Source: an uncultured delta proteobacterium
GTDB taxonomy: Bacteria > Desulfobacterota > Desulfobacteria > Desulfobacterales > UBA2156
NCBI GenBank assembly: GCA_963736855.1
Contig: CAVTQK010000021.1
Coordinates: 608,001-672,000, forward strand
Direction: 5' to 3'
Length of the DNA stretch: 64,000 nucleotides
Shown: in pieces, positions 7,476 through 15,786 of the stretch
How the letters are laid out: each line of letters begins with the position of its first letter
Numbering within the stretch: the first letter of the stretch is position 1
Program-made: the position numbers and the translations under genes
The notes under the pieces: model-generated
The model's database searches: none
The model's input: only the letters and a program-made list of their open reading frames with translations
Told to the model about the DNA's origin: nothing

Positions 7476-7867
7476 ATGAACCATTCCCCTATGATCAGAG
7501 CCGAACTGGCCGTAACATGGGCAGAAAAGGATGCCGCGCATCGGGATCGAACCTTTGTTCGCACAATCAATTTCTGATCCGTCCCATCGAGGTCTTTTCA
7601 GATATCGCCCGTATCCTGAAACCGGGGGGAATTTTCGTGAATACGTTTTCGGATCGATGGTTTTCGCCCAAGGTGATCACCCTCTGGGAAGAATTGCATC
7701 CCTTCGAACGGATGGGACTTATCCTTGAATACATGAGAAAAACCGGCCGATTTTTCGATCTTCATACCGAATCTATCCGAGGTGACATTCGGCCTCCGGA
7801 TGATAAATACGCCGGCGTCAAGGCAGACTCCGATCCGGTCTTTGCCGTATGGGGAAAACGCAAATAG
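7476..7867 (+). pseudogene. SAM-dependent methyltransferase-domain gene with a large internal deletion
   Basis: N-terminal stub MNHSPMIRAELAVTWAEKDAAHRDRTFVRTINF* (7476-7577) is joined out of frame to the C-terminus (ARILKPGG..FSDRWF..VWGKRK*). Confidence 0.65.
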
Positions 7868-8118
7868 CCCTATGGGGCTCCGGATTTCTTCCGAACGCCC
7901 CGGTATTTCAGCATGAGAGAGGATCTGAAGTCGGAGCCCACAGGCATTTGGTCAACCTGGAAAAAGACGACTCTAGAATCACTTCGGCTGTCTCCAGCGC
8001 TTCACGAGACTTGAATCCAGACCCCAGAGCCTGAAAAAGGGCATCGTGCCGGGATACAGCACACCCCAGTTTCTCATATGCAATCGGATTTCATGGCTTT
8101 CACCGCCCCGGAATTTTC
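7680..8118 (+). repeat. Left direct repeat (copy of 12402-12934, lacking ~95 bp)
   Basis: Base-by-base match to 12402-12934. Contains the methyltransferase 3' end and the 3' end of the Cys-rich gene. Confidence 0.95.
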
Positions 8119-8120
8119 AT

Positions 8121-8335
8121 GTCCAGTTGGTTGAGAAGCCGGCCTGACAAAGTTAGCCGACCGTCAGAATAGAGTTTTGCATTCATTCGGGTACCATATG
8201 AGTGAAGCGTAAACAGGGTGACAGCAGGCCGTAATGCGAAATGGGTGAAGGCGTTCAGCCTCGAAAACGTTTATGTTGTGGAGTAAGCCCAAGTGATTAA
8301 GAACACTGACCAAACCAACCTGAAATATCGCTGTT
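8121..8335 (+). ncRNA. Group II intron domain I fragment (5' half remnant)
   Basis: Motif string AGTTTTGC..TGAAGCGTAAACAG..GCAGGCCGTAA..GTGAAGGCGTTCAGCCTCGAAA, recognised as typical of bacterial group II intron domain I. No GUGYG 5' end seen. Confidence 0.55.
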
Positions 8336-9310
8336 GCAATTCAACCGGCTACGCAGGTGGTTTGTCGAAACGGTGAATTGTATCGGATATTGAAGGCCTT
8401 TATATCAAAAAAGCCGCCTCTTTGTAAGAAACGAGTTGCGAGGAATTTATCGACATCCGGGCTTTGGAACGGCTTTTCCGGCACCATGTGCTTACGATGC
8501 TTCTGGACAAAGGCAAGATCACAAAAGACATGATTGCCCTGTTGAATAAATGGCGGCATACCGGATTCAACGTGTACGGCGGCCCGAAAATCCTCCCCTG
8601 GCAAAAGGTGTCCATGGAAAACCTGGCCCGGTACATCATCCGGGCATCGTTTTCCCAAAAGCGCATGACCTATGTTCCGGAAGCGGGGACGGTGATCTAT
8701 CAATCCAAAGACGGCCGACACACAAAGCAACGCATCCCGCGGCTTGCGCAAAAAAGCCGGGGTGGATGAGATCATCCCTTCCCTGCTCGAGCCCGAAATG
8801 ACCGATAGGGCGTTTCGGAAAAATTGGCCACGCCTGATTCGGAAGGTCTATGAAGTCGATCCGCTGATCTGTCCCAAATGTCAAGGACGAATGCGGGTGG
8901 TCGCGTTCATAGAAGATCCGGATGTGATCCGAAAAATACTCAAACACTTAAACTTGTGGGATCTGAAACGACCACCCAGGCCCGTTGCCCATGCCCCGCC
9001 GTCGGAGGTAAGCCCGACATACGACGAACCCCTCGCACCTTCCACCGATGATTATATCATCGATCCGGTTTATCCCCTGGATTCCTATTTGTAAAAAAAA
9101 CGGCGAAAGATGAAGCGCCGATCTATGCCCGAATCTGCCAAATTAACGGCCATTTCCTGGTTAAATTCCGATTGACAGCTCATCCTCTTTCCGATAATTA
9201 AAACCCGTCCGTCATAAGAAATGCATGCCCCCATATCTTGGGTCGCAGATGATGCCAATATACAATTTATTTTTCCGCTTAATCCGCTTGGAAAAAACGA
9301 CTTCTTATCA
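8336..9310 (+). mobile_element. IS91-family element remnant (internally deleted transposase plus 3' non-coding end)
   Basis: Fragments WRHTGFNV..ENLARYIIRASFSQKRM (8464-8769) and W.RLIRKVYEVDPLICPKC..VIRKILKHL (8744-9094). Boundaries approximate. Confidence 0.8.
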
Positions 9311-9316
9311 TTTCAT

Positions 9317-10111
9317 TATATCGCCTTTCTCTATTTCATGCGCCTGGAGCAGGGACGGATCTTCTTTGTGCTGGATTCGGATGAAAGCGGCGAGCAGGCT
9401 CTGCCGGGACGCGTATACGCCGATGTGCCCACCCTGATGCGTGCCGGGTTTATGGAGCCGGCCGTGGACGACAAGCCCAGTCAGGACGAATGGGGCGTAT
9501 TTTTATCCGGCTATGCACCGCTGCTGAATGGTGAGGGCAAATACCTTCTGGGAATCGATATGAATGCCGAAGAGGTGGACAAAAAGCTCTCTTCCCTGCG
9601 CTTAACCGGCATGATCTCGCTTATCGGCTCAATCCTTCTGGCCCTTTTGTTTGCCCTTGCCCTTTCCCGCGGGCTGGGCTAGCGCATTGCGGTGCTGACA
9701 TCGCGCTGCCGCCACATTACCGCCGGCCGATTCGAGGAAAAGCTTGAGATGCGCACCCATGACGAGTTCGAGAACCTGATCGAAGCCTTCAACACCATGA
9801 GTGATGGGCTGGGCCTTGCCCGCGGCCAGGCCGAAAAAGCCATTGCGCAATTGAGCGATGCCCGGGACAACCTGGAAACCCGTGTCCGGGAGCGGACCCG
9901 TGAACTCGAGCAAGCCCTGGAAAAGGTCCAGGTGCTAAGCGTCATGCTGCCCATCTGCTGTTCGTGCAAGAAGATCCGTAACGACCAGGGATACTGGCAG
10001 CGGGTGGAGCAATTCATGGAATTGCACACCAGCGCGCGCTTTACCCATGGGTTGTGTCCGGAGTGCGCTGTCCTGCTTTACGTAGACATCTTGTCCAAAC
10101 CCAAAACTTGA
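9317..10111 (+). pseudogene. 5'-truncated membrane sensor (periplasmic domain-TM-HAMP) with C-terminal Cys-rich tail and an in-frame TAG
   Basis: ORFs 9221-9682 and 9692-10111 are in the same frame, split by TAG at 9680-9682. Motifs DEWG.FLSGYAP, HAMP (DEFENL..AFNTM) and LPICCSCKKIR..HGLCPEC. The 5' end abuts the IS91 end. Confidence 0.75.
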
Positions 10112-10121
10112 CTTAAATCAA
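10108..10121. promoter_or_regulatory. FNR/CRP-family-like palindrome upstream of hdrC
   Basis: TTGAC-TTAA-ATCAA against the FNR consensus TTGAT-N4-ATCAA, 36 bp before the hdrC start. Confidence 0.4.
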
Positions 10122-10156
10122 AGACAGCGAACTTGTCTTTGCGCTATCCATAGACC

Positions 10157-10747
10157 ATGTCAAATTCAACTGTTACGACAACCCAACCCATGATCCAGCT
10201 CAAGGGAAACCCCCTTAATCTTTCCCGGATGATCCGGGATCGCACGGGAGTGAATCCGAATCTGTGCTTTCATTGCCTGTGCTGCGCCAGCGGGTGCCCC
10301 TTTATCGGGGCCATGGACTTACACCCCAACCAGGTGATCCGCCTGGTGCAGCTGGGCCAGACCCACGAGGTTCTGCGCTGCTCGGCCATCTGGGCCTGCG
10401 TGGGTTGCCATACCTGCTCTTGCCTGTGTCCCATGGCCATTGACATGTCGGCCGTCATGGACGCCCTGCGGCAGATCGCTATCGAAAACGGTATCATACC
10501 GGCCCAACCCCAGGTGCTGGCCTTTCACCAGGAGGTGCTCGCCTCCATCGAGCGCTACGGCCGGACCCATAAGCTGGAAATCATGCTGCGATTTAAGGCC
10601 CGCACGGGAGATTGGTTCAAAGATATCGACGTGGGGCTGAAAATGCTGGCCAAGCGCAAACTCGACCTTACGCCCTCGCGGGTGAAAGCCATTGCCGAGA
10701 TCAGGCAAATCTACCAGCAGAGCCGCAAGGAGTGGCCCCATGGCTGA
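10157..10747 (+). CDS. hdrC: Heterodisulfide reductase subunit C-like 2x[4Fe-4S] protein
   Basis: CFHCLCCASGCP and WACVGCHTCSCLCP motifs. Overlaps the hdrB start. Confidence 0.88.
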   Translation: MSNSTVTTTQPMIQLKGNPLNLSRMIRDRTGVNPNLCFHCLCCASGCPFIGAMDLHPNQVIRLVQLGQTHEVLRCSAIWACVGCHTCSCLCPMAIDMSAVMDALRQIAIENGIIPAQPQVLAFHQEVLASIERYGRTHKLEIMLRFKARTGDWFKDIDVGLKMLAKRKLDLTPSRVKAIAEIRQIYQQSRKEWPHG

Positions 10748-11597
10748 CAACCCGGCAAAAACCTATTCCTATTTTCCCGGCTGTTCCCTGGCCACCTCGG
10801 CCAAGGAGAACAACCAGTCCCTGATCCAATTCTGCCGCCGGCTGGGCATCGAACTGGTGGAACTGACCGATTGGAACTGCTGCGGCAGTTCATCGGCCCA
10901 CAGCATCAACTCCAGCCTGGCCGCTCTCCTTTCAAACCGCAACCTGGCCCTCGCTCCCAGCGGCCGGCCCTTGCTGGTAGCCTGTCCAAGCTGCATGCTG
11001 CGCCTTACGGAAGCCAAGCTGCATTTGCAAAACGACCCTGTCGCCCGAAGGAATTACGAGCAAGCCTGGGGCCGGAAAGTGGATGATTCCCTGGAGATCA
11101 TCCATTTCTTCGAGCTATTTGACCGCCTGGGGTTTTCAAACTTGATTCCGGGCGCCGAGCAGAGTCTTTCCGGGCTCAAGATCGCCCCCTACTATGGCTG
11201 TATGCTGGCCCGTCCCCCGCATATGCGTCACCTGCCCAACCACTACGGCCTGATGGAACGCGTATTGGGTCAATTGGGCACCGAAACGGTTTCCTGGAGC
11301 TATGCCGCGCGCTGCTGCGGGACATTTTTATCCGTGGCGCGGCCCGATGTGGTCAGCCCCCTGGTGGATCAGATCGTCGATGGGGCCTCTGCGGCCGGGG
11401 CGGATTGCATCGTCACAGCCTGCGCCATGTGCCACCTGAATCTTGAGGTGCGCTGCACGCGTAAACAACCGCTGCCCACCTTTCATTTCTCCGAAATCCT
11501 GGCCCTGGCCCTGGGCGCCACTGCCCACAACCACTGGTTTACCCGCCACCTGGTCGACCCGCGGCCCATGCTCAAAGCCAAAGGCTTGATCAGCTGA
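10740..11597 (+). CDS. hdrB: Heterodisulfide reductase subunit B (CCG domains)
   Basis: YFPGCS, DWNCCG, CPSC, YYGC, CCG and TACAMC motifs. ATG 10740 with AAGGAG RBS. Confidence 0.9.
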   Translation: MADNPAKTYSYFPGCSLATSAKENNQSLIQFCRRLGIELVELTDWNCCGSSSAHSINSSLAALLSNRNLALAPSGRPLLVACPSCMLRLTEAKLHLQNDPVARRNYEQAWGRKVDDSLEIIHFFELFDRLGFSNLIPGAEQSLSGLKIAPYYGCMLARPPHMRHLPNHYGLMERVLGQLGTETVSWSYAARCCGTFLSVARPDVVSPLVDQIVDGASAAGADCIVTACAMCHLNLEVRCTRKQPLPTFHFSEILALALGATAHNHWFTRHLVDPRPMLKAKGLIS

Positions 11598-11698
11598 AAA
11601 GCCACATCGTACAAAAAGAAAACAGTTACCCGGGAACATCCCGGTTAACCGTTTAGGAGGAGAACAGATGCAAGAATGATTAGGCTGGCATTTATAGG

Positions 11699-11714
11699 AG
11701 CAAATCGTATGCCA
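11699..11714 (-). promoter_or_regulatory. Sigma-54 -24/-12 promoter-like motif (orphan)
   Basis: Minus strand reads TGGCATACGATTTGCT, i.e. GG-N10-GC in TGGCA..TTGC context. Confidence 0.45.
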
Positions 11715-11745
11715 GGCGAGGCCAAAATGCCGGGGTAGTGGTTGT

Positions 11746-12053
11746 TGATTGCCCTGTTAAATAAATGGCGGCATACCGGATTCAACGTGTACGGCGGCCC
11801 GAGAATCCTCCCCTGGCAAAAGGTGTCCATGGAAAACCTGGCCCGGTACATCATCCGGGCATCGTTTTCCCAAAAGCGCATGACCTATGTTCCGGAAGCG
11901 GGGACGGTGATCTATCAATCCAAAGACGGCCGACACACAAAGCAACGCATCCCGCGGCTTGCGCAAAAAAGCCGGGGTGGATGAGATCATCCCTTCCCTG
12001 CTCGAGCCCGAAATGACCGATAGGGCGTTTCGGAAAAATTGGCCACGCCTGAT
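11746..12053 (+). mobile_element. Second IS91 transposase fragment, 308-bp copy of 8531-8838
   Basis: Near-identical to the first copy (two substitutions seen) and carries the same internal deletion junction. Confidence 0.92.
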
Positions 12054-12378
12054 GTTGAAATCCCACCAACGCGGGATGGAGGGAAGGGGTTGACAGGCAA
12101 GTGTATCGAGGAGGGGAAACAATGCAGGACACAGAGCCTATAAGAGCATTGTCAACGGAACTGAATCGACTATCGGAGATTGCGGCAAGAGATTCACTCT
12201 TGGATTTATGCCGCAGGTATGTGAACCTGCTTGAAGAGTCCCGCCAAGGCGGGATTCTGTGAGGGGCCGGGGCCAACGGATACATGGTTGAAATAGAGTG
12301 GCACCGCCGGGAAACCAGGCGGCAAACAGAGAAAACAAACCTCAACCTGTAGTATCGGGAGAATCCGGTCTACTCGAC
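12054..12378 (+). ncRNA. Group II intron 3' half remnant (DIII, start of DIV with RT stub, altered DV, DVI)
   Basis: GGAGGGAAGGGGTTGAC (DIII-like); GAGGGGAAACA..CAGGACACAGAG; RT-like stub (M)STELNRLSEIAAR; GAAGAG..TTCTGTGAGGGG; terminal TCTACTCGAC. Confidence 0.75.
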
Positions 12379-12401
12379 TCATTATCATTCATTTTATCAT
12401 T

Positions 12402-12934
12402 CCCTCTGGGAAGAACTGCATCCCTTTGAACGGATGGGGCTTATCCTTGAATACATGAGGAAAAGCGGTCGATTTCTCGATCTTCATACCGAATCGATCC
12501 GGGGTGATATTCGGCCTTCGGATGATAAATACGCCGGCGTCAAGGCAGACTCCGATCCGGTCTTTGCCGTATGGGGAAAACGCAAATAGCCCTATGGGGC
12601 TCCGGATTTCTCCGAACGCCCCGGTATTTCAGCATGAGAGAGGATCTGAAGTCGGAGCCCACAGGCATTTGGTCAACCTGGAAAAAGACGACTCTAGAAT
12701 CACTTCGGCTGTCTCCAGCGCTTCACGAGACTTGAATCCCGACCCCAGAGCCTGAAAAAGGGCATCGTGCCGGGATACAGCACACCCCAGTTTCTCATAT
12801 TCAATCGGAATCGGCGGATACGTTGCATCTTTGAAAAAATAGGTCCCAGGTCCTTTCCACCCGACCGCCCTGAACGACCAGCTTTGTCGGAGGTCAAAAA
12901 AGAATTTCATGGCTTTCGCCGCCCCGGAATTTTC
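12402..12934 (+). repeat. Right direct repeat (copy of 7680-8118)
   Basis: Direct sequence match. Includes the orphan 3' end of the methyltransferase (12402-12589). Confidence 0.95.
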
Positions 12935-13534
12935 CTGTATCTCTTTGAGGTGCAGGTTCCTTCCCAACCGGCGATCGACTTCTGAACAAACGGCATCGAG
13001 AAATGCAGCATCTGTGATCACAAGTCCATAGAGATACCAGTCGGTACATACTGCCCTGACGATCTCTTTACGATCGGCGGAAAGGTTTCGGCAGGGCGGG
13101 CAGAAGTATTCCCGACATGCCAGACCGCCGTAAAAACTCAGCCCTCTGAAATCGATTCCCCGGTTTCCATCCGATAGAGGATGCAGCAGGCACCCCACTC
13201 GAGAACGCTGCTTTCCGACAAGACCCAAAAAAGGACAGCGATAAAAATCCGGATAGATACCCGGATCCGATTCCAGATGCTCCATTCGGAGCCGAAACGC
13301 CTCGATGGCATCTGCAGCGCGGGGAATCTCCTGGAATTCCCGGGTTCGAAAGGAAAGGATTTTAAGGAGTGTTTCCCGGGAGGCATCCGCACGATTGTAA
13401 AGTCCGCAACAGGCTCCGCAGGATACAGATTCTGAAACCTGGCAAAGATACACACCCCCTGGAACCGTTGCTTCAGGGTGTTGAAAAACCGACCTACGCT
13501 TTTCCACGACGCCTTGACCATTCATAAAGGGCAA
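12629..13534 (-). CDS. Cys-rich hypothetical protein (possible Fe-S/Zn binding)
   Basis: 301 aa. Motifs LC..SCGACCG, CPFLG, GCLLHP and AC..YFCPPC. Overlaps the end of the rsmG fusion. Confidence 0.75.
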   Translation of the reverse strand: MPFMNGQGVVEKRRSVFQHPEATVPGGVYLCQVSESVSCGACCGLYNRADASRETLLKILSFRTREFQEIPRAADAIEAFRLRMEHLESDPGIYPDFYRCPFLGLVGKQRSRVGCLLHPLSDGNRGIDFRGLSFYGGLACREYFCPPCRNLSADRKEIVRAVCTDWYLYGLVITDAAFLDAVCSEVDRRLGRNLHLKEIQENSGAAKAMKFFFDLRQSWSFRAVGWKGPGTYFFKDATYPPIPIEYEKLGCAVSRHDALFQALGSGFKSREALETAEVILESSFSRLTKCLWAPTSDPLSC

Positions 13535-14969
13535 CGGCCATCGCCACCGCCGCGTTTAAAGAGTCGATCCCCTGCTCCATAGGGATGGAAACGGCGCGAT
13601 CTCGTAAGCCTTCAGGCAATCCCTGGCCCTCCATTCCGGCCAGCAGCCCGAAAGCTTCCGGAAAACGGATTTTACGCAGATCCCGACCTTCAGCCGACAG
13701 GGCGATGACCGGGATATCCGGCGGGACTGCTTCCAGCGCCGGTCCCTCTTTTAACGGCAAGGTGAGGGCGGCACCCCCCGAAGCCCGCAGCGCCTTGGGA
13801 TGAAACGGGTGCGCGCTCTCCTGAAGCAGGATCCCCTGAGATGCCCCGAAGGCTGCCGCAGACCGAATGGCGGCCCCGACATTCTCCGGATCCTGGAAAG
13901 GCAGGAGCACGCTGCATCCTGGGGGAAAACCTTCTTCCGGTTGCCAGAGGGGTATCTCCGGCACACGGATCACCAATAGCGGGCTGCGGGTCCCATAGGC
14001 ATCCAGTACATCGAACAGGTCCGGGGCAAGGCAATACCATTTCATTAAAGCCGGTGCCCTCGGAGGAGGCGGCGTCCGGTCCCCACGGCTGATCCATGCT
14101 TCACATCTGTCCGGATGTTTTTGAAGAATTTCTAGGACTTGTCGGGTACCGCAAGCCAGGGCCTTCCCCGCTTTCCTCACCCCCCTGCTGGTCAAAAGCT
14201 TTTTGAGATCAATGAAAATCGGATTTTGGGGACTCGAAATAGCGTGCAGGGTGTTTTGGGCCGATGCGCTTTGCCGTACCGCGCAAACCGGGGCGTCAAG
14301 CCTTCGAAAAATCACCAAACGTCGCTGGTGCCGAATTTCGGGGAGGGTATAGGCTTTGTCGAAAAAAAGGGCATAGGCGTCCTTGAAACGCTTTGTCGCA
14401 CGCGCCACTTCCGCCTCAGAGCCCGGTCCCTTCATGAAGATGGCCATCCCTCCCTGATTCAAGGATCCCCGGATGCGATCGAGGGTCTCGTCGATGGGTT
14501 CTACGGCCCGGGTGATGACGGCTTCCACCGGTATTTCGGTCCGTTCTGAAATGCTGCCCGCATGTACCCGGATTCCCTTCAATCCCAGCAGGGCAATGGC
14601 CTGATTTAAAAACAAAACGCGCTTTCCCCGGCTTTCCGCCAAAATGACCTCAAGGTTTGGCCGAAAAATCTTCAAGGGTATCCCCGGCATCCCGGGCCCG
14701 GTACCCAGGTCGAGAAGTGGAGATGGAAGATCGATCATCGTAGCGGGAAAAAAGGAATCGACGTAGAGCTTCAATATCATATTGGTGAAATTGTGAACCC
14801 GTGTGAGGTTCAATTCGGAATTGCGGTCCCTCAAGAGGGTGTGATAAGTCCACAGCTGCCGGAGCTGGGGAGCGGAAAGCGTAATCCCGCAGCCTTGCAA
14901 AAGGGTATCCATCCTTTCTACGGTGGCCGTCTTTTCAGGTTCGGCAACAAAACGGTGCATCTTACTCAT
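13494..14969 (-). CDS. rsmG: 16S rRNA m7G527 methyltransferase RsmG fused to a TrmH/SpoU-family RNA methyltransferase
   Basis: N-half: NLTR..DS, LDLGTGPGMPGIPL, ES..KR..FL, TRAV, MKG. C-half: QDPENVGAAIRSA, G.EGQGL, SIPM..IDSLNAAVA. Start approximate. Confidence 0.88.
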   Translation of the reverse strand: MSKMHRFVAEPEKTATVERMDTLLQGCGITLSAPQLRQLWTYHTLLRDRNSELNLTRVHNFTNMILKLYVDSFFPATMIDLPSPLLDLGTGPGMPGIPLKIFRPNLEVILAESRGKRVLFLNQAIALLGLKGIRVHAGSISERTEIPVEAVITRAVEPIDETLDRIRGSLNQGGMAIFMKGPGSEAEVARATKRFKDAYALFFDKAYTLPEIRHQRRLVIFRRLDAPVCAVRQSASAQNTLHAISSPQNPIFIDLKKLLTSRGVRKAGKALACGTRQVLEILQKHPDRCEAWISRGDRTPPPPRAPALMKWYCLAPDLFDVLDAYGTRSPLLVIRVPEIPLWQPEEGFPPGCSVLLPFQDPENVGAAIRSAAAFGASQGILLQESAHPFHPKALRASGGAALTLPLKEGPALEAVPPDIPVIALSAEGRDLRKIRFPEAFGLLAGMEGQGLPEGLRDRAVSIPMEQGIDSLNAAVAMAVALYEWSRRRGKA

Positions 14970-15018
14970 ATCGCAGTCCATAGGTCGGAGATGACGCGGT
15001 CTTGCGCGATGCGCCTTT

Positions 15019-15786
15019 ATGAAAGGGTTCCCATCGGTGACTTCGATGCATTTTTTCCACCATCGCTGGCCTGTTTTTTTCGAAGACAACCATGTTCTCT
15101 CCCTTTACAAACCGGCCGGTCTTCTCATGCAGGGAGACCGAAGCGGTGCGCCGTGCATTCTCGATCTGGCCCGATCCTGGATCAAAGAGCGTCATCACAA
15201 GCCGGGACGGGTCTTTCTCGGGCTGGTCCACCGCCTGGACCGCCCCGTGGCCGGTATTGTGCTTTTCGCCCGCACCTCTAAGGCCGCATCCCGACTCAGC
15301 GCCCGGATTCGCGAGGGGCGGATTAGAAAAGCTTATATTGCCATCCTGGAAGGAATACCCCCCTCACCTTCAGGAGACCTGGTTCACTTCTTTGAATGCG
15401 TGAAGGGAAAAAACCGCATTCAAAGCATGCCGGGAAAAGGCATCAAGGAAGCCCGCCTTAGCTTTAAGGTTCTGGAAAGCGCCGGTAAACAAACTCTTGT
15501 AAAAATCAATCTGCAAACCGGACGCAAACACCAGATCCGTCTTCAGTTCGCCCAAATCGGATGCCCGGTGGTGGGGGACGTGCGTTATGGCGCTTCAGCA
15601 CCCCTTTCCGGCCGCCAAATCGCTCTCTTTTCCCAAGAAATCGCTTTTCAGCATCCCACACGGCCGGAGGAAATTACCCTGTCATCCCCCCTGCCGGAAG
15701 GATGGCCCTGGGGTTCCGGTATCGCTGCGACGGATGCGCCGCTTTGGAATTGGGATGATTTTGCCCTTCCCATTATTTCCGGGTAA
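15019..15786 (+). CDS. RluA-family pseudouridine synthase
   Basis: KPAG, HRLDRPVAG, TGRKHQIR and PVVGD.RYG motifs. Confidence 0.92.
   Translation: MKGFPSVTSMHFFHHRWPVFFEDNHVLSLYKPAGLLMQGDRSGAPCILDLARSWIKERHHKPGRVFLGLVHRLDRPVAGIVLFARTSKAASRLSARIREGRIRKAYIAILEGIPPSPSGDLVHFFECVKGKNRIQSMPGKGIKEARLSFKVLESAGKQTLVKINLQTGRKHQIRLQFAQIGCPVVGDVRYGASAPLSGRQIALFSQEIAFQHPTRPEEITLSSPLPEGWPWGSGIAATDAPLWNWDDFALPIISG

Follow-up and report, generated by a model that had tools for sequence, protein, structure and literature searches.

A layered island of group II intron and IS91-type remnants around a foreign hdrC-hdrB pair in an uncultured delta proteobacterium

We analyzed a stretch of 64,000 nucleotides (nt), referred to below as the window, from an uncultured delta proteobacterium of the order Desulfobacterales (assembly GCA_963736855.1, contig CAVTQK010000021.1, positions 608,001 to 672,000), and identified in its sequence a layered island at 7680-12938. 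The names of homologues likewise point to a host in the Desulfobacterota. The island is a decayed composite of known parts plus one little-described target rule: a stack of dead mobile-element layers, likely left by IS91-family activity and homologous recombination, which encloses a foreign hdrC-hdrB gene pair. Nothing in it can now move on its own. At a probability of about one half, we propose that an undescribed group II intron lineage of Desulfobacterota and their neighbours parasitises and freezes the rolling-circle origin ends of IS91-type elements, that IS91 elements insert back, and that the resulting debris may form an ISCR-like trap for metabolic genes, which here would have caught a stand-alone HdrCB pair.

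The original prediction for this locus, made from the letters of the window, described a symmetric nest of direct repeats, a split group II intron, paired IS91 fragments and a HAMP pseudogene with hdrC-hdrB. Repeat, Rfam and Pfam comparisons confirmed all of these layers but not their symmetry: the left intron edge is deleted, 192 nt are gone at the split, the right IS91 fragment (IS91b) has no ends, and a tail of IS91-end sequence lies at 12379-12401. The predicted repeat starts, the intron 3' part (12054-12378) and IS91b (11746-12053) were correct, whereas the repeats end at 8122 and 12938 rather than 8118 and 12934, the intron 5' part spans 8122-8309 rather than 8121-8335, and the left fragment (IS91a) spans 8449-9310 rather than 8336-9310. 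The outer repeat comprises 7680-8088 and 12402-12809 (96.6% identity over 409 nt) and a second block, 8088-8122 and 12904-12938 (94% over 35 nt); the inner repeat comprises 8531-8838 and 11746-12053 (99.35% over 308 nt). Since the largest other direct repeat in the window had only 32 nt at 65-72%, neither is a chance match.

Intron insertions at the right ends of IS91-type elements

In the genome of a sister species (G005), the intron interrupts an IS91 right end, with CTTA on its 5' side and TCA on its 3' side. All 15 distinct 5' junctions of the lineage end in YTYYTA (18 rows, from which two duplicates and one non-intron match were dropped; nine junctions from four genomes of one family are separate sites rather than separate lineages, and the sites come from few genomes). 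TCA begins 16 of 17 distinct 3' ends at ≥80% identity, compared to 1 of 14 more distant ones. Exon-binding site 1 (EBS1) pairs at 6/6 positions in seven of nine readable cases, and a compensating TAGGAA/TTCCTA pair is present in one copy (L100). At 8 of the 14 sites with enough flank, the intron lies directly against IS91 right-end sequence, with a transposase upstream in two. Judged from these junctions, the homing target of the intron lineage is a single site, YTYYTA^TCA, located in the right end of IS91-type elements, and insertion of the intron there would disable the origin. No report of introns homing to IS91 ends was found in the literature, subscription journals and supplements not being covered; intron databases and ISfinder may record the target.

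The window follows the same pattern. Its EBS2 (CGTTT, 8268-8272; EBS1 is at 8298-8303) pairs 5/5 with AAACG at 9295-9299 in the IS91a end, and AAACGACTTCTTATCA was found once in the genome. A joint from 9203 back to 8122 in sample X4 has the same order. Behind the intron 3' piece, 12379-12401 consists of TCA and short stutter repeats, joined where the native gene reads GATCA^CCCTC. Because this intron 3' exon is itself an IS91 end, the right edge of the island is an IS91 junction. The outer repeat was also considered as a target-site duplication of the intron; this was ruled out, as the intron 5' end is absent and the 3' exon is the IS91 end.

The opposite nesting also occurs. An IS91-type element with an intact right end lies within the same intron family in L107 (G730:C130, 1535 region), at a TATC site near intron nt 455; this case of IS91 in intron serves as precedent for one step proposed below. 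In L054 and L021, IS91 sequence was fused to the intron 3' part by deletion. Such a fusion can therefore arise by plain deletion. L021 (G000:C15:563126-563510) is a second remnant of the same intron in the genome, extends from the C-terminus of the reverse transcriptase (RT) to the 3' end with a TCA exon, and follows an IS91 3' region at a distance of about 225 nt. L103 has two tandem introns, and a separate short copy of the end motif surrounds each of them.

The IS91 fragments have IS91-family Y2 HUH similarity, with Pfam Y2_Tnp (PF04986) over the cut-off (E-values of 4e-7 and 2e-6) and a weak match to NF033538 (E 6e-6, positions 183-281 of 356), but contain no whole transposase and do not form an autonomous element. 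In IS91a, the N-terminal half of the transposase is absent and about 100 nt are deleted internally near 8717/8726, a stretch kept in a copy on contig C15; IS91b has the same internal deletion and lacks both ends. This common deletion shows that the two descend from one already dead parent. The genome's one full-length IS91 transposase (C24) belongs to another subgroup and has no similarity to the IS91a piece (E 0.37). Approximately 45 IS91-type ends in the genome have a TATCA-like motif at their terminus, behind which short stutter repeats are frequent: at least two TCA within 25 nt were present behind 8 of 25 strict-pattern ends compared to 6% of controls. The right end lies downstream of the transposase, like oriIS in IS91, and is conserved in about 45 copies; it is a candidate origin. 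The stutter repeats are TCA plus flanking bases and occur at 9311-9317, at 12382-12401 and behind many IS91 ends genome-wide. Left of IS91a, the linker at 8356-8439 is likely the remnant of an IS91 left arm; a 78% copy is present at C15:424106, and in G005, IS91-end sequence comes after its homologue. Two matches for 8310-8460 outside the genome (2/250) were chance matches in unrelated genes.

The intron itself is a remnant. Its 5' piece matched Rfam group-II-D1D4-6 with 42.2 bits (E 1e-9), short of the gathering score of 49; no Rfam model reached its gathering score in the whole window, and matches to RsmY, Histone3 and Six3os1, far below gathering, were dismissed. Intron_gpII had no match in the window up to E 5. 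Intact relatives are 1,980 nt long, with a 387-aa RT and a normal domain V. One of them (L095), to which the window pieces are 86-92% identical, scored 125.8 bits for RF02005 and 52.8 bits for RF00029 (Intron_gpII), both above gathering, and 339.9 for TIGR04416 (cut-off 300). The lineage thus has the domain I-IV fold, domains V/VI and RT-maturase that define group II introns. In the window, the 5' piece begins at intron nt 25, its left edge being a deletion junction, and the 3' piece consists of an RT start stub (12122-12196), a plain hairpin in place of domain V, and domain VI. The hairpin and the RT deletion (about 1.2 kb of open reading frame, ORF) are shared with G005, which carries both pieces in one unsplit, ORF-less intron of 751 nt. 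With its 5' GUGYG end absent, domain V replaced and the RT deleted, the window copy cannot splice. It is thus not the working half of a hybrid vehicle, as had been proposed, but very probably a passenger targeting IS91 ends, a conclusion that holds under both our preferred explanation and the two-unit alternative discussed below. Its 5' piece was found in 3 of 301 genomes of the order and its 3' piece in 31 of 301. Viral contigs contained one cut RT fragment and no junction pattern, and the best plasmid matches relevant to the class of the intron RT were 48-50%. Very short palindromic inserts (CCCGCC-n-GGCGGG and CCTGCC-type) interrupt domain V (12239-12254), domain I of L053 (nt 73-94) and the X4 IS91 copies; the genome has 59 CCGCC-n-GGCGG and nine CCTGCC-n-GGCAGG matches, as raw counts without a chance control.

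The two pieces are collinear and non-overlapping on the G005 intron (nt 25-235 and 428-751), with nt 1-24 and the 192 nt at the split missing, and three small trees place the window copy together with that of G005 (bootstrap 60, 100 and 88). They are therefore of one lineage, as originally proposed, and not of different intron classes. An alternative, which we regard as unlikely, is that no intron was split: the island would consist of two separate IS91::intron units, the right half being a deletion derivative of one IS91 whose end contained the intron and the left piece a remnant of a second copy, and the inner duplication may then stem from tandem duplication followed by deletion. This would agree with the same right-half anatomy in L054 and L021, the fit of EBS2 to an IS91a/b-type end, the numerous and clustered IS91 ends in the genome, and the greater divergence from G005 of the 5' piece (19/187) than of the 3' piece (18/324; p 0.07). 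However, the two pieces stand in order and without overlap, all three tree segments place the window with the G005 mini-intron, and one extra homing event would be required.

The stand-alone hdrC-hdrB cargo

Both edges of the cargo are fixed by X3 contigs, 93-94% identical, which run on natively before 9318 and past 11746; one of them (X3 record 22) is 94% identical over 10690-11746 and diverges beyond. The cargo thus corresponds to 9318-11745, and it is foreign. The HAMP gene at its left edge is 5'-truncated, with a TAG at 9680. G+C content at third codon positions is 0.71-0.76, compared to 0.42-0.64 in six flanking genes. The closest HdrB relatives in public assemblies were 95, 84 and 81% identical, followed by 55-66% across the class, and in seven of seven same-family genomes no HdrB match was found at E 1e-60, matches in the genus being at most 37% identical. 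Runs X1, X2 and X4 hardly covered the cargo or did not cover it at all, from which its absence does not follow; among the sequencing runs listed, the best share of words was 0.29 and no RNA run was present.

The description of the cargo as an energy-metabolism module stood in part. It is foreign, but it encodes an HdrCB pair without HdrA, and the genome already has an HdrA-linked HdrCB; the quick HdrB tree, an analysis suggested with the original prediction, placed the island HdrB apart from this resident protein. No hdrA is present in the island, which therefore does not encode an HdrABC complex. The stand-alone HdrCB clade was detected in 97 of 301 class genomes at E 1e-60. Outside hdrC, no HdrA-like match was found in 24/24 loci of relatives (0.7-1.5 kb flanks), compared to 7/7 resident-type loci in which one was present, suggesting that the stand-alone pair is the native form; adjacency of hdrC was seen among the loci listed. 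HdrB and HdrC retain their Fe-S Cys motifs, and both proteins score below NCBIfam cut-offs. By analogy, the pair would presumably reduce a disulfide with electrons from a partner encoded elsewhere, and would need HdrA or another partner in trans. We found no function for the clade and no literature title on stand-alone HdrCB. No sigma-70 promoter was detected in 9000-11800. A TTGAC-N4-ATCAA box is located at 10108-10121, 35 nt upstream of hdrC, and we take it to resemble an FNR/Crp-type site. Elsewhere in the window, a non-coding stretch of 157 nt (1392-1548) matches C12:461-617, upstream of the resident hdrC, at 82%.

Proposed assembly of the island and its outer repeat

Our preferred explanation, again with a probability near one half, is that the parent of IS91b captured the cargo, which then recombined into a resident copy in the dead intron, followed by deletions and by allele recombination at the flank. 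According to PMC13181058, rolling-circle copying starts at the right-end origin and crosses the element and the DNA beyond; in this direction, mobilisation of the cargo would have required an IS91 copy to the right of hdrB. In the ISCR pattern, the origin adjoins the distal end of the cargo and an IS segment is present in duplicate (PMC7707992, PMC3575428), and the island has the same geometry, with the candidate origin at the far cargo end and the duplicated segment on the opposite side. The inner duplication is likely due to ISCR-style capture, and the IS91-type capture originally suggested remains plausible.

The proposed series would begin with an IS91 end landing at an ATCA in a methyltransferase gene, followed by homing of the intron into that end and its decay. 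A defective IS91 would then have inserted inside the intron. Elsewhere, a copy of the same defective IS91, fused downstream of hdrB, would have rolled through hdrB and hdrC up to a TATC in the sensor gene, and the circle would have recombined in via the shared transposase segment (the ISCR route), generating IS91a-cargo-IS91b. Deletions would have trimmed IS91b, the intron and the left flank. In the last step, recombination between diverged alleles of the junction between the methyltransferase and a convergent 301-aa gene would have produced the outer repeat and left the 301-aa gene whole.

This last step bears on the outer repeat. Its right copy contains 94 nt that are also present in G005 and hence native, so the left copy bears a deletion. 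Substitutions are concentrated in the first 117 nt (11, versus 2 in the next 292; p 3e-5) and 8 of these 11 are synonymous (p 0.001), and the left copy, the right copy and G005 are mutually equidistant (11, 9 and 12 differences). The copies are therefore alleles of different lineages, diverged like sister species, rather than a fresh copy that drifted. G005 matches the left copy at the first six variable sites and the right copy at most later ones, weakly suggestive of a crossover. The near-identical middle of the repeat needs gene conversion or a same-species donor carrying a foreign patch. Overall, a single crossover and an older, trimmed duplication explain the outer repeat about equally well; the proposed entry by single crossover is thus plausible as one of two fits.

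The original prediction envisaged an intron/IS91 hybrid that gave rise to one circle with hdrCB on it, which a single crossover in the repeat would have integrated. The strong form of this model, in which the intron takes an active part in the transport, meets a dead intron, placed in the end motif and with a deletion junction as its left edge; in its weak form (a finished 4.7-kb unit, one crossover, a related strain) it coincides with the last step above and is about as likely as the older duplication trimmed later. The right repeat starts directly at the IS91 end, as expected of a rolling-circle junction, but an ordinary IS91 insertion yields the same junction. The diverged alleles with their reciprocal pattern against G005, and the single-copy junction in G005, also agree with such a circle, which on balance we consider improbable. 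Weak hints of other, longer duplications of the locus with other contents also speak against it. Two X4 joints, probably on one contig, connect 7964 to 13427 and 13515 to 7574 (repeat contig depth 48 versus 19-21 in the flanks, in a mixed sample), and G005 has a second, 94% copy of 13370-13686 or more on another, unlinked contig. In the G005 population (L018:1-1322 and L089/L002), junctions of the second copy with a toxin-antitoxin-like pair and a transposase-like end were observed, and G002 is truncated at 13368, the same point as the second copy of G005.

Repeats that differ like alleles of two lineages, and the lack of a listed piece spanning the whole, might also reflect an assembly chimera of two co-occurring strains with false repeats. 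We consider this very improbable: each repeat copy has its own junctions, the 94-nt deletion is private to the left copy, the contig has 818 kb with contamination of 2.8%, 8140-8492 is spanned by X2 record 11 at 3 differences, and according to X3 both edges of the cargo are natural breakpoints.

Several observations weigh against our preferred explanation. The genome has no intact transposase of the IS91a/IS91b subgroup and no intact intron RT, none scoring over the cut-off. No donor with IS91 fused behind hdrB and no circle were found, and the X3 relative has no IS91 at either edge. Several unobserved deletions are needed, and fusions by deletion alone, as in L054 and L021, leave two intron copies possible. 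At 6 of the 14 intron sites the motif is present without detectable abutting IS91 sequence. The 5' piece is 89.8% identical to G005 and 92.0% to the intact L106. The allele switch within the methyltransferase part has p 0.07, and reaches 0.005 only with right-hand sites that may be decay. Finally, no read or contig bridging the whole structure was found; the listed pieces bridge no junctions other than those within 8140-8492.

The surrounding locus is unstable within the genus, with differing losses and insertions in G002, G003, G004 and G005. The genus gene order is K+ exporter-like gene, radical SAM gene, methyltransferase, convergent 301-aa gene and rsmG/SpoU. In the window, a deletion at 7573/7574 interrupts the methyltransferase (in tblastn, aa 18-44 and 306-409 of the 410-aa G003 orthologue matched). 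It is intact in G003, where 5 kb of other genes and no long repeat are found at the junction; it is missing from the locus in G002 and G004, and G001 had no match. Single-copy junctions were found only with a broken methyltransferase, in G005 and three metagenome contigs (same sequence over the aligned stretch). The predicted empty site, an intact methyltransferase beside the convergent gene, was absent from all genomes examined. The 301-aa Cys-rich protein belongs to no Pfam or NCBIfam family, only to unnamed Atlas clusters; its CxxCxxCC motif is a weak lead (12% of one Atlas cluster, score 0.76). A single ORF at 13494-15089 encodes both an RsmG (GidB) and a SpoU methylase domain in fusion. 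Coordinates of the features are listed in Table 1.

Table 1. Features of the island and its borders in the window
Feature	Position	Strand	Basis
Methyltransferase pseudogene, N-terminal stub joined to 3' part, roughly 0.8 kb deleted	7476..7867	+	tblastn
Left repeat: methyltransferase 3' end (allele A) and 3' end of convergent 301-aa gene, 94-nt deletion	7680..8122	+	Repeat comparison
Group II intron 5' piece, intron nt 25-235, domain I; true 5' end missing	8122..8309	+	Rfam, alignment
Linker; 8310-8355 without assignment	8310..8448	+	
IS91a: dead IS91-family fragment, intact right end ...AAAAAACGACTTCTTATCA	8449..9310	+	Pfam, NCBIfam, alignment
Short stutter behind IS91 end	9311..9317	+	
5'-truncated HAMP sensor pseudogene; left edge of cargo at ATATC site	9318..10111	+	Pfam; X3 contig
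hdrC-like gene, intact, two CxxCxxCxxxCP motifs	10157..10747	+	Pfam/NCBIfam
hdrB-like gene, intact, two CCG domains, stand-alone HdrCB clade	10740..11597	+	Pfam, quick tree
Donor-derived tail; right edge of cargo	11598..11745	+	X3 record 22
IS91b: 308-nt internal copy of IS91a 8531-8838, same internal deletion, no ends	11746..12053	+	
Group II intron 3' piece, nt 428-751 of G005 mini-intron; 3' end CTACTCGAC	12054..12378	+	
Intron 3' exon: last TCA of IS91-type end and stutter; true right edge of island	12379..12401	+	
Right repeat: methyltransferase 3' end (allele A') into intact convergent gene	12402..12938	+	
301-aa Cys-rich hypothetical gene, intact	12629..13534	-	

Relation to known systems and significance

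The closest parallel for the cargo arrangement is the ISCR1 complex class 1 integron (Toleman model; PMC7707992, PMC3575428), which shares with the island an IS91-family element, an origin (in the island a candidate) at the far cargo end, a duplicated segment and, by the route proposed here, homologous entry. However, the elements of the island are dead fragments, its cargo is metabolic rather than a resistance gene, and there is no integron. Compared to IS91, IS801 and IS1294 (PMC13181058), the fragments are alike in their Y2_Tnp/NF033538 similarity, the absence of target duplication and a conserved right end by a short motif; they differ in that the end motif is TATCA-like rather than CTTG/GTTC, stutter follows the ends, and the transposase is fragmentary.

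Introns that target insertion sequences have been described: RmInt2 homes to the inverted repeats of ISRm17 (PMC4615759) and E.c.I introns home into IS elements (PMC3522654). As in the lineage of the window, the target is part of an insertion sequence and the RT has no obvious endonuclease tail, which for our lineage is suggested by the 387-aa length. In contrast to both, the window lineage targets a rolling-circle right end, an IS also enters the intron (L107), and the window copy is dead. IStrons (PMC4227781) likewise fuse intron and IS sequence in one unit, but these are functional chimeras of group I introns and IS elements, whereas the island holds a non-splicing group II remnant in an IS end. 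In its accessible text, PMC7923331 names IS91 only as a comparison.

The cargo resembles HdrABC heterodisulfide reductases in the two-cluster motifs of HdrC and the two CCG domains of HdrB, but differs in having no HdrA beside the pair, in scoring below NCBIfam cut-offs, and in belonging to a stand-alone clade of putative function.

Given a sharp target rule of this kind at the right ends of IS91, one mobile element would be able to inactivate another, for which RmInt2 in the ISRm17 repeats is a known parallel. If the ISCR route is true, IS91-type capture moves anaerobic redox genes among environmental bacteria, beyond the clinical resistance genes.

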